Under the pieces are notes generated by a model, which did no database searches, had not been told where the DNA came from, and saw only the letters and a program-made list of their open reading frames with translations. Below, piece by piece: positions 8,870 through 59,761 of a DNA stretch of 64,000 nucleotides. How positions within the stretch are numbered: the first letter of the stretch is position 1; each line of letters starts with the position of its first letter. This DNA comes from Escherichia phage EI-SP-GF, in the sequence record OR992645.1. One strand, given 5' to 3'. Both the position numbers and the translations under genes were made by a program.

Positions 8870-11800
8870 ATGTGTGGTCCGAACGGGGCGATAATTGCAA
8901 CGCAGAGGATGCACAAGCCTAATGATCAGCAACTTGTTAACGTATTCTACGGGCAAGATGTCTGGGGAGATGATACATGGCGTTCCTTAAATATTACCTA
9001 CACCCATGAAGTAATAATGGCTCGTGGGTACGGAACAAGTGGCATTTTCTTCAATAATGGTACTAAGCAGTATCGCGGATTCTCTCGCAACCTGTGCAAC
9101 GATATTGGAGCACAATCTGCAAACAATAATCCTCGCGCCAATTTTATCCATTATCAAGCTCTTGCTACAGCCAAGTATGTTGAGCAACGACTGCCAGTTA
9201 GCTGGACAGAGAGTGTTTACTTCCAGGGTATTCATAGAGAAGGTTTTTTAGGGACCTTTACCGTTGTTAATGGCAAACTTTGGTGGTCAGGCATCCCAAG
9301 GGGAAGTTTTGCAGGATCTAATAACCTGTTTGGCGGCAGACTTAACAGCCAGGGGTTCACAGAGGTTCCTGAGAATTGGTATAAAAATGTCCCAGTAGAT
9401 AGTTGGGATATTGATGATATTTTTGACGTTAACGGTGTTAGCAGTGTTAGCAATATTTACATCGGTGACACGGTCAAGATGAAATTGAAGCCTCAACCAG
9501 AGGGGGCCACGTTCATTATTGACAAGATTGAACTGGTAAATGCTGCAGGCACGGTTGTTACAGATGCAAATTACCAATTCTCCACCAACTGGAACCACGG
9601 CGGGGCCAACGAGGTTGTTGTTACTCAGTATAACAGAAATGTTAACAGACGCGGTCTGTACTCTGTAAAAATAACCTATCATGACAAGCATGGCACGGGC
9701 AGAACTCACACAACAAGGACTTTGAACTGGAACACTATAGTTCCTGCGTATCCGTCTGATGGTAAATGGCACACTGTAGGCAGAAACAAACAGTTCCATG
9801 TTAACGATACTGTGTACTTTGGGCTTAACGCTGCTCAGCCAGCTCCAGAAAGCGATACAGCGTATATGGTTCGGCTGCACAGGCAAGATGCTGGGTCTGT
9901 TACCTACGATGTGACCCAAGAGATCTACAATCAGAGACGCTCCACGTATGACAATATTGTGAAAACACAAGCCTTGTGGGAGTTCAACCCTAACGGCAAA
10001 GGTGGTAAAATGTTGCAGGTTAACGAGCAAAACGGAACATCGTTAACTGTCCACGAACACCCAGACCCTTGGCCTGACCCTGGTAAACCTAACTCAGGTG
10101 CTCGCACACTGCAAGTTGTCAGTCATGATGTAGGCTATTTTGGGATACGTTGGGAGGCCACAGTAAAATATGCCGATGGGACAACAAACAACATAGGGAT
10201 TACGCTTGGTGGCACTAGTGAGAGTAACTCGCTGAAAATTGCCTACACTCCTAGAGGTATCTCTATTGACAACATGGATATAGTCCGTAACGGTTACGGA
10301 GATGTAAACATCAAAGTTACTCTTGGTGAGCATCTTGGCGGAGAAAGGATCATTATGTATGCCTTTGATCATGACCCTCGAACCAACGGAACTTATGCAA
10401 ATCAGGCCTGGAGTTACCTGATAAGTGCACCTGAGCCGAATACTAAAGAATTCTACTACGGTATGAAGCGAGATGTGTGCAAGAAAACAGGAACACACGA
10501 CTGGATTGCTATCTGTGTTAAAGATGAGAGAACAGCTTGGGATGAGCCTGTTAACCGCTGGTTCATAGGTATTCCCACCAGAAGTGATAAATACGTTGAA
10601 GAATATATTGTATGTATGGGCGGCACCAACCTCAACATGTGTTGGAACGAGGACGCAAACAAATATTCTGATTATGACTATATGAGGGACTACTCTTGTA
10701 ATCAATGGTTCAACCAATCCGGGTATGCTAATAGACAGTCAAGGGTAAACCCTGCAATCTTCACAGATACGCAGGTTTTCTTGACAAAACAGGCCAACGA
10801 GGTTCAGACCTTCAAGAACAACTATGATCCTAACAAGTGGTTCTACAACTGTTCCGGAGCAATATTCTGGGGGCCTGGTGAACTGCCTGATAGTGGTTCT
10901 TGCTTCGAGGCTGCAACCTATGGCAGTGACTATATTATGGGGCAGGTCAAGAAGTACAAGATGATTCCAGGACCTGAAACTTTAGGTAATGCTGTTGACC
11001 CGTACATAAATTTCGCAGCTATACATGCTAATATGGATGGAGAGAGATATCCGTTTGTTGTTCCGTTAACTTGGGGGTACAAACGTGTCGTGATGATTAT
11101 TAAATGCGATCTGATCGGGAAGCAAGTTCTTGCAGAAAATGGAACATCCACACACCCTTTTGAAGTTGCTCTGCACTACCAGTTTGCAGACTCACCATAT
11201 GCAGGGGATAAAAGAATATCCGACACAGACTCTAAGCGCTGTAAGAAAGTTTTACTTGGAGCCGGGTGGTGGTGGTACGAGTTTGATTTGACAGATAAGT
11301 TCACAGATGATACCAAAACTCTCACAGGTATCCGTCTGGACCTTGGTGAGAACATGCATAAAAGTGTTTGTGATGGTACCTACGGTGACCCTACGGTATA
11401 TCTAAAGTATGTTTCTCTTGAGCATCGCGAAGAGGATGTTTACGGTCCAAAACTGAGATTGTTTGGCGCATGGATTGCCAAAGACAGAGTAGGTATGGGT
11501 AAGAAGGTGAGAGGCTTCTTGATAGATGTAGGGACAGAGGACATGCTGGTTAATGCAGTATGGCCTGAATTACCCGGAACTCAGTGGAACAACTCTGCCA
11601 AATCTATAAACTGGTACAATATTCACAGAGCTATGTGGACCACTAACTGCTACTTGTGGAGAGAGCTTAACGATCAGGCCTTTGGCTTTAGTAACGGCAG
11701 AAGGATGGCGATCATTTGCTGGACAACATTGCAAAGATGTTATGACCATGACTATGAGATTGGTGGTAGGGCATGGAAAGATATCAGGGACAGAGTTATA

Positions 11801-45337: not shown

Positions 45338-45663
45338 CAGAGATCATTATTTCAACTGCAGGGTATGTATTCCTGACAATCATTGCTCTGACCATTTTGG
45401 TGGCGGTATATGGATTTGTTATTCTACCTATTCTTGAGACAATTAGTTTGTGTCGGTGTTGGAGAAAGGCTTACGGTCCACAGCCGTGGAGGGACTGGCC
45501 CCACCTGGTTCGCATAGCGTTCTCTTATGCTTATGATCACGCCAGCAGTGCATGCATAACAGGGTATCACGCTCACAATTGGAACTGGGAAGGGTTGGGT
45601 AGATGGAATGTTATAAAGACCATACCTCTACGTATGCACAAGCCTAAAAACAAAGACAATTGA
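45334..45663 (+). CDS. small membrane protein
   Basis: 109 aa; N-terminal hydrophobic segment VFLTIIALTILVAVYGFVILPIL; ATGA coupling. Confidence 0.4.
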   Translation: MTEIIISTAGYVFLTIIALTILVAVYGFVILPILETISLCRCWRKAYGPQPWRDWPHLVRIAFSYAYDHASSACITGYHAHNWNWEGLGRWNVIKTIPLRMHKPKNKDN

Positions 45664-45974
45664 TACTTGAAAATCCCTGGCACATCAAGTATAAGGAGGA
45701 TTTCTAAAATGGATTTCCTCCTTTTGATATTTTACCTAGCCGGATATTTTAAAATTCTTAGAAAATCAGAAAATGGATCGAAAACTAAAATGGATTTTTC
45801 AAGACAGGCGCGATAAGATGTGCTGCTCATTCTATCGTTCGCACCGTACTTTAAGTTACTATTCCAGATTTTCCGCACATACCCTCACCCTTCTACCAGA
45901 ACTTTCCCAGCTTACCTTTGACCTTTTATAACAATAAGCCCATTATTCTCAGTAGGTTTTGATACATCTCTCTC

Positions 45975-46062
45975 AGTACTCGATCTGTTTTTCGTTTCAA
46001 AGATTGAATTTTCTGAAAATTTTTCTCGATAAATTTCTTAGTACTCGATCTGTTTTTCGTTT
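45975..46062. repeat. tandem repeat in an AT-rich non-coding region
   Basis: AGTACTCGATCTGTTTTTCGTTT at about 45975 and 46040 (65-bp period) with degenerate further copies (CGATTTTTCGTTTTC, TTTTCTGAAAAT/TTTTCTGGAAAT). Confidence 0.6.
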
Positions 46063-46267
46063 TCTGAATCAGATTTTCTGGAAATCGTTCCGGAGCTCGA
46101 CCTGAAATTTTTGGGGACGAAATCGATTTTTCGTTTTCGGAAATGGATTTTTAAAATTTGTATATGGAAATATTTAAGGAGGTATTATTTTATATAGAAT
46201 TGTCACGGTAGGTAATTAGCATGCTAACTAAATTTATGAAATGCGAAAAGTTCTCATTTAGAATTTT

Positions 46268-46478
46268 GAATGATAATCATTCTCGTTTGCAGAATAACGG
46301 GCACCCCCGGTGATTGTCTCCCGGCCCCTGTTGCCCCGGCTTGTTATTATAGTATCACACAGGACAAAGAAAGCAAGGATTTTTTGCATAAATTTTTAAA
46401 TGATAATGATAACCGTTCTCATTTTATGCAGCGCCCATCCCCGGTGGTTGTCTCCCCCGTCACCGGTGCCTGCCGTCC
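46268..46478. repeat. two paralogous GC-rich elements of about 75 nt (possible structured RNAs)
   Basis: AATGATAATCATTCTCG...GGCACCCCCGGTGATTGTCTCCCGGCCCC versus AATGATAATGATAACCG...GCCCATCCCCGGTGGTTGTCTCCCCCGTCACCGG; no convincing ORF. Confidence 0.5.
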
Positions 46479-46923
46479 TTTCGATAGGTATATTGTGCCA
46501 CCTGTCGGGGCCGCTGTCAACACTTTTCAAAAAAAAAATTCTAACCTGATGCGCTAACCGTTGCAACCTGGCGGGGCCAGCCTGACCAGGTAGGAGAGAG
46601 TGAAAGCTTGCAAACCTGGTAGGCCTATGCTACAGGGCAGGTAACAATTGAAGAGGAGGTACAAAAATGAAAGGTAATTTGATCCCCTGGAAATGTAGCG
46701 ATTAATGACGCTGAGGCTATCGCCCTGGTTGAAAAGGCTATGGCGGGAGCGTTGGAACATAAAGAAGAGTACGAAAAAATGATGGTTAACCTGGTAGGGG
46801 CGGCGGCTGGAGAATTCTGCCCAAAAAATAATTCTAACTAATGGTTGACAGCTCGGATAGTTCTGTTATTCTTATCCTTGCAAGGTGAACAACACCACAC
46901 TAATTAACAGAGAGGATAAAATC

Positions 46924-47121
46924 ATGAACGCCTACGGAATTAAAGTACGTCGCAACACTTGCCAGGCCGTCACCGATCAAATGATTTGCCAGGTGGACGT
47001 AACCATCAACAACGGGCAAGGCCTTTATAAATTCCGTCGCGGTCAGAGCTATACCCGGCAACAGCTTAATCGTTGCGCCCTGACAAAAGGCCAGATCAAC
47101 CACTGGTTTAATAAAAAATAA
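46924..47121 (+). CDS. small early-region protein
   Basis: ATG after AGAGAGGATAAAATC; TTGACA promoter-like box upstream; 65 aa. Confidence 0.45.
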   Translation: MNAYGIKVRRNTCQAVTDQMICQVDVTINNGQGLYKFRRGQSYTRQQLNRCALTKGQINHWFNKK

Positions 47122-57221: not shown

Positions 57222-57240
57222 TTTCTTAACTGAATTATCA

Positions 57241-57266
57241 AGGGGCTTAAAGGCCCCTTTCTTTTT
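57241..57266 (+). terminator. Rho-independent terminator ending the rightward early unit
   Basis: AGGGGC-TTAAA-GGCCCCT followed by TTCTTTTT. Confidence 0.6.
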
Positions 57267-57874
57267 GTCTGCTCTTCTCCTACCATAAACGGCCCTACCT
57301 GGCAAGTGGAATAATTGACTAGCCATCAATCCCACACACTGTACAAATATACATGGAAAATAACTATTGCATAATCTTTCATTGTGTGGTAGCAAGGCCA
57401 TTTTTACCCGTTTTCTCTCCCAAAAGTGCACGTAATGCAGCTATTGCACAAATTTTAACCTGATGCATATCTCCAATATCTTGTCAACAACTAAAAATCT
57501 TTATAAGTCATACACTTACACAGCATCGAAAGCGTGTTCTACGCGAAAAATCGAGTATAACTATAGCCGCCAGATCTCAGAATTCACGTACGCACGCCAT
57601 TCTATAGCCTGCAAAGTATTTATTCCAACCACAGAATAACGGAATAGTCAATACCTGCATAAAATAATTATTCGTGTAAACTGCATAACATAAATCAGCT
57701 CAGGTGTCAACATTTTTCGTAAACAGTCCGAAATTATCACGATGAGTTATCATAAACAGAGAAATCTTTAGTCGTCTAATGTTTACTGTACATTACTATA
57801 CTGACTGGAATCATTAGATGACTAAGAAAAAGATAAGAAATAATTAATAATGTAATTGTTTTACCTGTAACAAT

Positions 57875-58053
57875 AAGGCAACTATGCAAACGAATGGCAT
57901 GGCGCGACGGAGTCGCGACATAATATAAAAGCAGTAACCATCACCCCCGTGATGGTTTTTCTGCAATCTATTATTCAGATCATAGTTGCCTTGTATTTAG
58001 TTAATCATGACATAACAAGCAAGGCAACTGTAGATCTTCTAATAGTTGCCCTG
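57875..58053. repeat. alternating-orientation 12-mer repeats (ATAGTTGCCTTG family) plus a duplicated 20-mer
   Basis: ATAGTTGCC(T/C)TG at about 57983 and 58042, reverse complement at about 57875 and 58018; ATGCAAACGAATG(G/T)CATGGC at 57884 and 58142. Confidence 0.55.
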
Positions 58054-58174
58054 CTTTTATATTATGTCATAGATTATTAACTTATTAACTGTCAGCTTGT
58101 TGGCTGTTAGCTTGTCAATTGTTATCTTGTTAATTGTTTTCATGCAAACGAATGTCATGGCTTATCATCTCTGT

Positions 58175-58227
58175 GTAAACAGTTTGGGCGTAAACTATTC
58201 AGGCGTAAACAGTCTATGAGTAAACAG
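58175..58227. repeat. phased iteron array
   Basis: GTAAAC(A/T)(G/A) at 58175, 58190, 58205 and 58220, exactly 15 bp apart; further GTAAACAG copies at about 57719, 58532 and 59273 and inverted at about 58387. Confidence 0.6.
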
Positions 58228-59761
58228 TGAGATATGGAATAGTAACAGCCGTTATTGTGTCATATTGTGCTGCAGTGCGTTATGTTGTGCCATATTGTGT
58301 CACTATTATGTCAGACAAGTTTTTCCTCTCTTTGTCAAGTGCTGCATGAAAAATTTACAAACTGGTATGGTAGCATTTTTGCGGCCCTGTTTACATTCAG
58401 TTGTGTATGTATAACCCTTGTTGTGTGGGCGTTTAGACGTCTGGACGGTCAGAAGTCCGCAGGTTAATATCTAATCTATTGGCTGCTGACTATATCCCAC
58501 ACAAATAGTAAGAAATATAATTGTTATATGCGTAAACAGTAACCCATGTTATCAATCCCTGTATGTATCGCCAGTGGTGCGCATAATGGGTATTATGTTA
58601 AATTGCCCGTAATGATAACCATTCTCACAATGATAGGTATTCTCATTCACTCCCACAAGATAGATTGCAAATGTTGTGCCACTGTGTGAACGGCCTGGCC
58701 TATTAATTTGCCTCACTGCCTCGATATTTGAGAATTATTATAAAAATGAGAAGTATTCCCATTCCGTCCGCCTGGCAGCACTCCAGTCGCTACCGGCTCC
58801 TGACAGGGCAGCACTCCTGTAGGACAAGCACAAAATCGGGGCATAACTGCCTGTTCAGATATTTCTGGCTAACTCTTCAGGCCTGTGTGGGAAAAGCCAA
58901 CCTCTCCGGCGGCGGGGAGGGGTCAATTAAAAAATTTAGGTGGTGTATGAAGCGCTCTTCAGGCAAGGTGTGTATTATGGGATGAAACCCTCTTCAGGTG
59001 ATGATATTTGTGGGTGTGATATTTGCTGGAAAGCCAGATATGACGGGACTCCCGGCGGGGCAGGGGTAGTACAGGCAGGGAAAATGTGAGGATGTGGTGG
59101 GAGTAAATTGATCAGGCAGGTAGGATATGGAATATGTTACAAGTATGTTAAATATGGAGGCAGGATATTTGTAAGATTTGTGTGTAAAATCAAAGACTTA
59201 AGTGGTGTTGTGGTATTTTCTATAAATAATTCAAGTTTAATAGGTAATATTTGTCTCTATCCGCTTTGTGTGGTAAACAGATTCTAATTGAATTGGTTTA
59301 CAAGTGTATATAAAGTATACAAATTAAAGATATAAGAAACCCCCCTCCCCCTTCGGCTACCATTCACCTTTTCCTCTGACTGGTACTTAAACACTTATTC
59401 AGACTCTTCAGGTTATCACCCATATACTATATGGCAGTGACTGGTGTCCTCCGGCCCCTCTTTCGTCACCCGTCCGCTTCGCCATGCTAATGCCATAGCT
59501 AAAGGTTCGGTTGTTCACCCTGTTCACTCAGGTGTATCTCCATACCCCTTCAAACCGAAGAGAACAGAAAACCCGAATTACTCGGTAAAAGAAAAGAGAA
59601 GAACTTAATTTTATCAGGATAGGCAAGAATGTCAAGGGATGACTGCTCACTAAACAAGCAAACAGTCATGTGTGGTAGGTAAGTGATTGTGGTGGTGGAA
59701 AATTTAGTTGAAAGATGTGTTATAGTGCTTCCAGCACTTTAGCCGGGCGGCTAATTGTGTG

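Follow-up and report, generated by a model that had tools for sequence, protein, structure and literature searches.

The 64,000-nucleotide stretch of Escherichia phage EI-SP-GF analyzed here (record OR992645.1; referred to as the window) belongs to an rV5-like Vequintavirus, a myovirus, and contains a gap of about 1.25 kb (45664-46923) between two gene blocks. Positions 45600-47000 are 97 to 98% identical to Escherichia phages ECP2303, ECP26, and B9-1 and 80 to 95% identical to about 120 other records. According to a crude gene map and the annotated complete HdK5 genome, a long rightward block that includes the DNA polymerase I, helicase, and primase genes lies upstream of the gap, and about 25 small genes lie downstream, the first of which have their own sigma70-like promoters in the window. 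A grey box labeled "non-coding" appears, without interpretation, on the map in the rV5 genome paper, in which the replication origin could not be placed. In our judgment, there is an even chance that the gap is a conserved noncoding control module gated by host Fur rather than a set of structured RNAs. From left to right, the module is predicted to consist of a terminator, an AT-rich stretch with AAAATGGAT motifs and three repeats, three Fur-like palindromes, and two or three tandem leftward promoters.

The features are collected in Table 1. All conservation and substitution figures are from an alignment of ten rV5-like phages, with conservation calculated per 20-nt bin.

Table 1. Features of the gap, the adjoining early promoter, and the second palindrome cluster, in window coordinates
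Feature	Position	Strand	Details
Intrinsic terminator of the upstream rightward block (replication and middle genes)	45693-45733	+	Stem AAGGAGGA...TCCTCCTT, then UUUUGAUAUUUU
Highly conserved AT-rich block	45700-45800		Three AAAATGGAT motifs (45706, 45770, 45787); conservation 0.93-0.99
Variable spacer, noncoding	45801-45974		Conservation 0.81-0.94, the lowest of the left half; no codon periodicity
Repeat (iteron-like) unit 1	45975-46039		AGTACTCGATCTGTTTTTCGTTT, then AT-rich tail with palindrome AATTTTCTGAAAATT; conservation 0.94-1.0
Repeat unit 2	46040-46104		Begins 65 bp after unit 1
Repeat unit 3, degenerate	46105-46160		GGGGACGAAATCGATTTTTCGTTTTCGGAAATGGATTTTT; 72% identical to the reference copy
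Fur-box-like palindrome O1	46240-46258		AATGCGAAAAGTTCTCATT; 22.7 bits with the phage-derived matrix; 29 bp from O2
Fur-box-like palindrome O2, AT-rich head of element 1	46269-46287		AATGATAATCATTCTCGTT; 26.2 bits
GC-rich tail of element 1	46296-46342	-	Between O2 and the predicted P_L1 start; would be the first ~45 nt of a leftward transcript
Putative sigma70-type promoter P_L1	46349-46376	-	-35 TTGCTT (46376-46371), 16-nt spacer, -10 TACTAT (46354-46349); predicted start ~46342
Fur-box-like palindrome O3, head of element 2	46405-46423		AATGATAACCGTTCTCATT; 27.5 bits
GC-rich tail of element 2	46428-46485	-	Paralogous to 46296-46335; between O3 and the predicted P_L2 start
Putative sigma70 promoter P_L2	46492-46520	-	TTGACA, 17-nt spacer, CACAAT with TG (extended -10); 10/12; predicted start ~46485
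Weaker candidate third leftward promoter	46538-46566	-	TTGCAA, 17-nt spacer, TAGAAT; 9/12; partly conserved
Indel-rich, GC-rich region	46567-46660		ACCTGG...CCAGGT inverted repeats; upstream of the small-gene ribosome-binding site
Small gene, 58 aa and intact in relatives, frameshifted in the window	46667-46841	+	Third-position excess weak (0.133/0.143/0.206)
Putative sigma70 promoter of the first early gene (46924-47121)	46845-46872	+	TTGACA, 16-nt spacer, TATTCT, with TG
Second palindrome cluster	58611-58763		58611-58629, 58629-58647, and 58745-58763 (20.4, 23.0, and 24.0 bits); weaker 58727-58745

Fur-box-like palindromes

The first-pass annotation of this sequence had described two related elements in the second half of the gap, each with an AT-rich head and a GC-rich tail. 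The AT-rich heads are 19-bp palindromes of the form AATGA(G/T)AATnATT(C/A)TCATT. When up to three mismatches were allowed, 11 strand matches at six sites were found in the 64 kb, compared with 0.2 expected, and all of these sites fall into two clusters, at 46240-46423 and 58611-58763. O2 is invariant in 10 rV5-like phages and is the core of the one stretch that different genera share. O3 is overlapped by a second match (46399-46417, 14.1 bits) lying 6 bp to its left.

The classic Fur consensus is GATAATGATAATCATTATC, and known sites typically match it at about 11 to 16 of 19 positions. The best three matches to this consensus in the 64 kb were located at 46402-46420 (16 of 19), 46266-46284 (15 of 19), and 58608 (15 of 19). 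The matches occurred in 6-bp phase (46266/46272, 46396/46402/46408, and 58608/58614/58626/58632). Fur boxes are characterized by a 7-1-7 inverted repeat, TGATAATnATTATCA, with overlapping sites in hexamer phase. The pattern TGAKAATNATTMTCA, with up to two mismatches, gave nine matches, concentrated in the two clusters, compared with 1.3 expected. The fhuA promoter of Escherichia coli K-12 has ATAATCATTCTCGTTT, which lies in the Fur operator and is identical over 16 nt to window 46274-46289, overlapping O2.

The promoters of fepB-entC, fepA-fes, fepD-entS, and fhuA are repressed by Fur. A matrix was built from 29 phage copies only and scanned against 20 kb of the E. coli ent-fep cluster and fhuA. 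The top six matches all fell within about 4% of the 20 kb, namely, the promoter regions of fepB-entC, fepA-fes, and fepD-entS, and at fhuA the top match was the Fur operator. Because of the consensus matches, the identity with fhuA, and the recovery of E. coli operators by the phage matrix, the AT-rich heads are equivalent to Fur boxes as judged by sequence. Operators of ArgR, Zur, and other regulators were considered less likely, as the 9-1-9 half-site spacing and the 15-bp core fit Fur and not the 18-bp ARG box.

The E. coli Fur boxes at fhuA, fepA-fes, fepB-entC, and fepD-entS thus share with the phage sites the 19-bp AT-rich palindrome with a 7-1-7 core TGA(T/G)AATnATT(A/C)TCA and the 6-bp phase, alongside the 15 to 16 of 19 consensus positions and the fhuA and matrix matches. 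In contrast to the E. coli boxes, the phage sites are found on a virulent genome, are arrayed at a spacing of 29 or 18 bp, and lie 55 to 105 nt downstream of the best-supported promoters. G is preferred over the Fur-consensus T at position 6 of the phage boxes (core position 4), and the predicted binding in the phage would control no iron-related gene. Full-text literature searches revealed no earlier description of Fur boxes, noncoding RNAs, or an origin in this phage group.

Predicted leftward promoters

At all 25 distinct loci compared, the best sigma70-like match on the minus strand was positioned at a fixed distance from the boxes, with the end of its -10 hexamer 77 to 82 nt to the right of the O2 start. 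In other genera, this match, which corresponds to P_L1, has the form TTGNNN, 16 to 17 nt, and TATNNT or GATANT, agreeing with the consensus at 7 to 10 of 12 positions (7 only in phAPEC8-like loci, otherwise 9 or 10). In rV5-like loci it agrees at 8 of 12 positions, in alternative registers. The P_L1 spacers are unrelated in sequence across loci while the hexamers and the spacing are kept, and a TGT (ACA on the minus strand) at the predicted +1 is invariant.

P_L2 is conserved in the rV5-like phages; in MiataMamis its -10 hexamer is CATAAT, with A2 and T6 kept. The distance from the box start to the -10 end is 80 nt for P_L1 and 87 nt for P_L2, and the two promoters do not align with each other. 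Given these promoter positions, each GC-rich tail corresponds to the stretch between a predicted leftward start and a Fur-like box. At 46527-46539, two of the candidate leftward promoters are separated by a run of 10 A residues whose length and composition differ from one rV5-like phage to another.

Conservation and architecture across genera

In a sensitive BLAST search, cross-genus retention was limited to window 46229-46385, with 70 to 89% identity. This stretch is kept in Seunavirus, Mydovirus, Certrevirus, and Henunavirus (Vequintavirinae) and in Phapecoctavirus (Stephanstirmvirinae), always in unannotated DNA. It has three parts, namely, the palindromes, a GC-rich stretch in which GCA....CGGTG.TT is invariant, and an AT-rich motif with CAAG after it. 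Wherever there is more than one box, the spacing is 29 bp, and CR3 and anhysbys have three or four boxes. The 38-bp "repeat_region" deposited for anhysbys (L004, 2978-3015) is part of a Fur-like box array with this 29-bp spacing. In several genera, TTGAAT precedes each box and xAGAAT or TAGnnT follows it, so that the resulting 29-bp unit looks like a weak promoter directed rightward (compare window 46266-46295).

Three repeat units of 62 to 78 bp are located just upstream of the boxes in GAP31, Seu621, CR3, and Hena1, which represent four Vequintavirinae genera, and share the form GGnnCTCGATCG..TTTTC..CGTATTTTT..A/T tracts. Different AT-rich repeats are found upstream of the boxes in anhysbys, and in Phapecoctavirus the boxes and the promoter are kept while the upstream repeats differ. 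The 65-bp repeats of the window are the Vequintavirus version of this architecture of repeats, boxes, and promoter. Their period and the degenerate copy, as described in the first-pass annotation, are real; indeed, every feature listed in that annotation was found where it had been placed and beyond chance expectation. The 23-nt core AGTACTCGATCTGTTTTTCGTTT at 45975 and 46040 gives the 65-bp period, and the third unit begins at 46105. Tandem Repeats Finder did not call the 65-bp repeat as an array and reported only a 12-nt micro-repeat. The motif AAATGGAT, also listed in that annotation, does occur four times in the gap; three more copies are present on the plus strand in the rest of the 64 kb.

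In addition to the three AAAATGGAT motifs of the AT-rich block, a fourth motif, GAAATGGAT, is found at 46140, within repeat 3. In GAP31, the AAAATGGATTT motif recurs in inverted form (AAATCCATTTT) twice, at 1073-1100 and 1206-1233, 133 bp apart and upstream of the repeats. Because of this recurrence, the AAAATGGATTT motif is taken as a third conserved motif of the module.

The terminator at the left border has a folding energy of -16.7 kcal/mol (z = -3.67; 0 of 200 shuffles equal) and is nearly invariant in 10 rV5-like phages. It is the sole strongly structured piece of the gap.

Coding status of the gap

No intact open reading frame (ORF) is conserved across 45664-46666. The substitution levels at codon positions 1, 2, and 3 were 0.125, 0.143, and 0.095 for the ORF at 45773-45931 and 0.036, 0.040, and 0.037 for the 95-aa ORF at 46270-46557, indicating that there is no third-position excess in either. 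The upstream flanking gene, used as a control, gave 0.026, 0.068, and 0.150. The frames in the gap are interrupted in relatives by 1- to 2-nt indels; within 45801-45974, 3 of 10 relatives have a 1-nt insertion that disrupts them. The deposited annotations of the gap in relatives contradict one another. The coding potential of the 95-aa ORF, a 52-aa ORF, and a minus-strand 48-aa ORF was rejected because codon periodicity is lacking and the frames are not conserved.

Parts of the gap are more conserved than the flanking genes, with 0.94 to 1.0 per bin at 45700-45800, 45975-46160, and 46230-46530. The variable part of the gap is at 45800-45975, and 46570-46660 is rich in indels. The statement of the first-pass annotation that the gap has no convincing ORF therefore holds for 45664-46666. 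It does not hold for 46667-46841, in the last quarter of the gap, where the remnant of a real small gene is located.

Second box cluster and genome ends

The HdK5 record has an exact terminal repeat of 459 bp, which maps to window ~58312-58772 and encloses the second palindrome cluster. Being equivalent to the HdK5 terminal repeat, this part of the window contains the physical genome end. In HdK5, the first box begins 10 nt from the genome end. When the complete HdK5 genome was scanned, sites of at least 18.9 bits were found only at nt 10-162, at nt 11437-11620 (the gap), and in the right-end copy of the repeat; 11 sites had at least 14 bits, compared with 0.9 in shuffles. Since the strong boxes of HdK5 are confined to the gap and the terminal repeats, the early-gene block is bracketed by box clusters.

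The gap boxes of HdK5 lie 11.4 to 11.6 kb from the left end, at 8.2% of the genome length, and those of the window lie 12.3 to 12.5 kb from the terminus-equivalent point. The KPP-1 paper describes a direct terminal repeat of 514 bp. This repeat is located in the convergent noncoding region and not in the KPP-1 homologue of the gap, and it has box-like motifs, which straddle its boundary. In the terminal cluster, a promoter with 9 of 12 matches would place two of the boxes at about +8 to +45.

Proposed function of the module

We infer Fur binding, promoter firing, a roadblock logic, and an origin role for the module. Host RNA polymerase would start at P_L2 (~46485) and P_L1 (~46342) and transcribe leftward. 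When iron is replete, Fe2+-Fur on the boxes 55 to 105 nt downstream of the starts would block or attenuate this transcription. When iron is scarce, leftward transcription would continue into the repeat and AT-rich block, which may be a site of protein assembly, most plausibly a transcription-activated replication origin. With the same boxes in the terminal repeats, the whole early-gene block would have a Fur-box cluster on either side. A control region that is shared by two subfamilies of virulent phages of enterobacteria and contains look-alikes of Fur boxes could let these phages sense host iron status. The first-pass annotation had also suggested protein-binding structures or a second origin-like element. 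The former suggestion agrees with the Fur-box-like operators in the heads and with the place of the repeats in a cross-genus architecture; the latter, as far as it concerns an origin, is argued from that architecture.

Several points weigh against the Fur-gated module. The boxes lie at +55 to +105 of the predicted P_L1 and P_L2 starts and off any -35/-10 pair, an unusual placement for Fur repression. The boxes would overlap a rightward promoter (TTGAAT, 18 nt, CAGAAT), but this candidate is weak and was not adopted, as position 2 of its -10 hexamer varies (A, T, or G) across phages. The AT-rich -10 region is promoter-like on both strands in several genera, so the leftward direction is a prediction. 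Neither a terminator nor a product of the leftward RNA was found. Box clusters that abut the terminal-repeat boundary would also fit a phage DNA-end or packaging protein. DnaA and IHF consensus sites are absent from the gap, and the local GC-skew profile shows no inflection there; the origin role is for these reasons argued from architecture.

Possible replication origin

An origin as the primary function of the module is possible, although we hold it only tentatively. The repeats and the AT-rich DNA would bind an initiator and unwind, and the leftward promoters would give transcripts for activation or priming; with their G-rich 5' ends, these transcripts could form R-loops, as at oriF and oriG of T4 and the primary origin of T7. 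This explanation overlaps with the Fur-gated module, and the two are compatible. It is consistent with the three direct repeats with A/T tracts, spaced at 63 to 78 bp in one orientation beside AT-rich DNA, an architecture that is conserved across genera. The GC content falls to 24 to 33% at 46000-46250, and the conserved promoters point into the repeats. The origin reading fits because the block is just downstream of the DNA polymerase, helicase, and primase genes and the origin of the family is unplaced.

Besides the missing DnaA and IHF sites and the flat skew profile, the G-richness of the leader, which is not conserved in other genera, argues against an origin. Because the G-tracts are not conserved in other genera, the idea that the G-rich minus strand forms a G-quadruplex or R-loop was rejected. 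We know of no initiator. The T4 origins oriF and oriG and the primary origin of T7 consist of a promoter plus an unwinding element, and lambda ori and P1 oriR are iteron origins. The gap resembles them in having direct repeats and AT-rich DNA beside promoters that would fire into them, in being noncoding, and in its position near replication genes. It differs in that neither an initiator nor a DnaA box or skew signal was detected and in that its repeats are long (62 to 78 bp) and few (three). As to skew, the rV5 genome paper tied all changes to the orientation of transcription.

Possible operators for a phage protein

It is unlikely, but deserves consideration, that the palindromes are operators for a phage protein, such as a replication initiator, an early-gene repressor, or a terminase or DNA-end protein, and that they resemble Fur boxes only incidentally or secondarily. 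The restriction of the boxes to the gap and the terminal repeats, the first box 10 nt from the HdK5 end, and the KPP-1 boxes across the repeat boundary favor such a protein. The boxes also adjoin repeats of conserved architecture, and the preference for G over the Fur-consensus T at position 6 points the same way. However, the matrix built from phage copies specifically singles out true Fur operators in E. coli, one box shares 16 nt with the fhuA operator, and the 6-bp phasing is typical of Fur arrays. In addition, a Pfam scan of 10 flanking proteins revealed no DNA-binding candidate, only a Macro domain.

Paralogous elements and proposed structured RNAs

The two elements, about 85 nt each, were aligned with a score of 57, compared with 17.9 +/- 3.3 (maximum, 36) for shuffles, which confirms that they are paralogous, as the first-pass annotation had proposed. 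The aligned duplication spans the Fur box and the GC-rich stretch and is best explained as a Vequintavirus-specific tandem duplication of a Fur-like box plus 45 to 60 nt of GC-rich sequence; directly to the right of each copy lies a putative leftward promoter of its own. In the tail of element 1, GCA....CGGTG.TT is invariant amid freely varying bases. No match to the GC-rich elements was found in 5,426 E. coli genomes, and a host origin was rejected.

The further proposal that these GC-rich elements represent structured small RNAs is improbable. The strong sequence conservation and the adjacent promoters are compatible with such RNAs. A hand-drawn 5' outer stem is 84% paired with one covarying, compensatory position, and its covariation score, which 10 of 500 shuffles attained, lies only just above the controls. 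Neither the GC-rich parts nor the predicted leaders folded better on either strand than dinucleotide-shuffled controls (z-scores of +0.62 to -1.56), an outcome that the first-pass annotation itself had named as speaking against its proposal. A z-score of -2.34 arose only when the palindrome was included in the folded stretch. RNAalifold gave no consensus structure on either strand, with consensus energies of -1.45 and -1.7 kcal/mol across 13 to 15 diverged phages. Within the rV5-like phages, the tetranucleotide that follows GCA alternates between CC and GG, and no compensating change accompanies this. Rfam gave no match at gathering score in the window, with only one noise hit (E = 7.2) in 44.5 to 48 kb, and none in six related loci. 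The lack of a terminator for the leftward RNA also argues against this proposal.

Genera other than Vequintavirus have a second, highly conserved GC-rich block of about 95 nt, CTACCGGCGATCCACC...GGGGTGGCG, followed by a T-rich run. It is located at 1660-1770 in GAP31 (L008) and at homologous positions in L004, L005, L007, L009, and L010. On the plus strand, its consensus fold has an energy of -13.5 kcal/mol with many G-U pairs, and it has no Rfam match. This suggests that the block is the 3' end of a rightward small RNA or a terminator. Both the block and a homologue of the minus-strand ORF of the other genera are absent from the window, where the duplicated element 2 occupies the place of the block.

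Possible T5-like injection stop

As a whole, the module appears by analogy to resemble most closely Repeat Region 3 of T5, the injection-stop region, which is untranslated, 1.2 kb long, and located near the 7.9% point in the first-step-transfer DNA. Direct repeats of 66 bp are found in this T5 region along with palindromes and DnaA boxes in pairs, and it is more conserved than the ORFs around it (Davison, bioRxiv 10.1101/866236). The two regions are alike in size, in their location at about 8% of the genome at the inner edge of small early genes, in their repeats of about 65 bp, palindromes, and arrays of host-protein sites, and in being more conserved than neighboring ORFs. They differ in their sites (DnaA boxes versus Fur-like sites) and in the terminal repeat (about 10 kb versus 459 bp), and they share no sequence similarity.

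By this likeness, the gap could be the inner border of the DNA that enters first, where host-protein sites would pause genome entry until early proteins are made. The position of the untranslated repeat and palindrome region about 8 to 9% from the genome end, with only small genes between and the first of those in the window having their own sigma70-like promoters, is in line with such a stop. It is nevertheless very doubtful, being drawn from positional and architectural analogy. The boxes are Fur-like and not DnaA boxes, and the T5 region, unlike the gap, lies within a terminal repeat. To our knowledge, there is no report of two-step injection by an rV5-like phage.

Improbable readings: terminus, packaging site, or small genes

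Although several database records start near rV5-like noncoding regions and some annotators call ORFs in the gap, a genome terminus, pac site, or set of small-protein genes at this place is hardly credible, because the HdK5 terminal repeat maps 12 kb away, the KPP-1 repeat is at a convergent region, and the ORFs show neither codon periodicity nor conserved frames.

Fur boxes on phage DNA and significance

The stx1 promoter is Fur-regulated cargo on a temperate phage. The sitABCD operon on lambdoid phages is likewise Fur-regulated cargo (PMC6969025). As predicted for the gap, a Fur box on phage DNA links phage-borne transcription in these systems to host iron. The systems differ in that sitABCD and stx1 have one box that serves an accessory or virulence gene in a lysogen, whereas the strictly virulent phages compared here have arrays of Fur-like boxes both in core noncoding control regions and in their terminal repeats.

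Phages of the rV5 type are widely used as broad-host-range therapeutic and biocontrol agents, and the "non-coding" box on the rV5 map has been unexplained since the rV5 genome paper. If the Fur-gated module is real, infection by these phages would be coupled to iron availability, and laboratory broth is sharply different in this respect from the gut or infected tissue. For engineering, the gap offers a candidate module for control or as an origin, and spurious ORF calls could be corrected in dozens of deposited genomes.

A broader proposal, which we regard as a long shot, is that Vequintavirinae and Stephanstirmvirinae use host Fur as a checkpoint. The arrays would bracket the early block and gate origin-activating leftward transcription or genome entry by iron status, and the roughly ten strong boxes per genome copy could titrate Fur and thereby derepress iron uptake for the iron-dependent ribonucleotide reductases of the phage.

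Other features and observations

In the small gene at the right end of the gap, the frame set by the ATG at 46667 differs from that of the conserved body at 46692-46841. The frameshift, at 46667-46700, is caused by length changes in short C and A runs and may be attributed either to decay of a dispensable gene or to a homopolymer sequencing error. Phage pangalan also has a length change at the position of the frameshift, and no gene is annotated there.

The conservation of the indel-rich region upstream of this gene falls to 0.58 to 0.79, and the window is without 14 nt that are present in most relatives. Its fold z-scores were -1.3 and -0.7. The AACCTGG(C/T)(A/G)GGGG-like units listed in the first-pass annotation are present, and the unit at 46788 falls inside the small gene.

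No tRNA or tmRNA was found in a scan for these genes. Between 16 and 18 records labeled "Campylobacter phage" (host, C. jejuni) are 87 to 93% identical to the window phage across noncoding DNA; these records look like mislabeled or contaminating rV5-like coliphages.

A region of about 2.5 kb without credible ORFs, larger than the gap studied here, is located at 57222-59761, where the rightward gene block meets the leftward one. Within this region are the terminal-repeat equivalent, several hairpins that resemble terminators, and a leftward promoter close to consensus (59635-59608).

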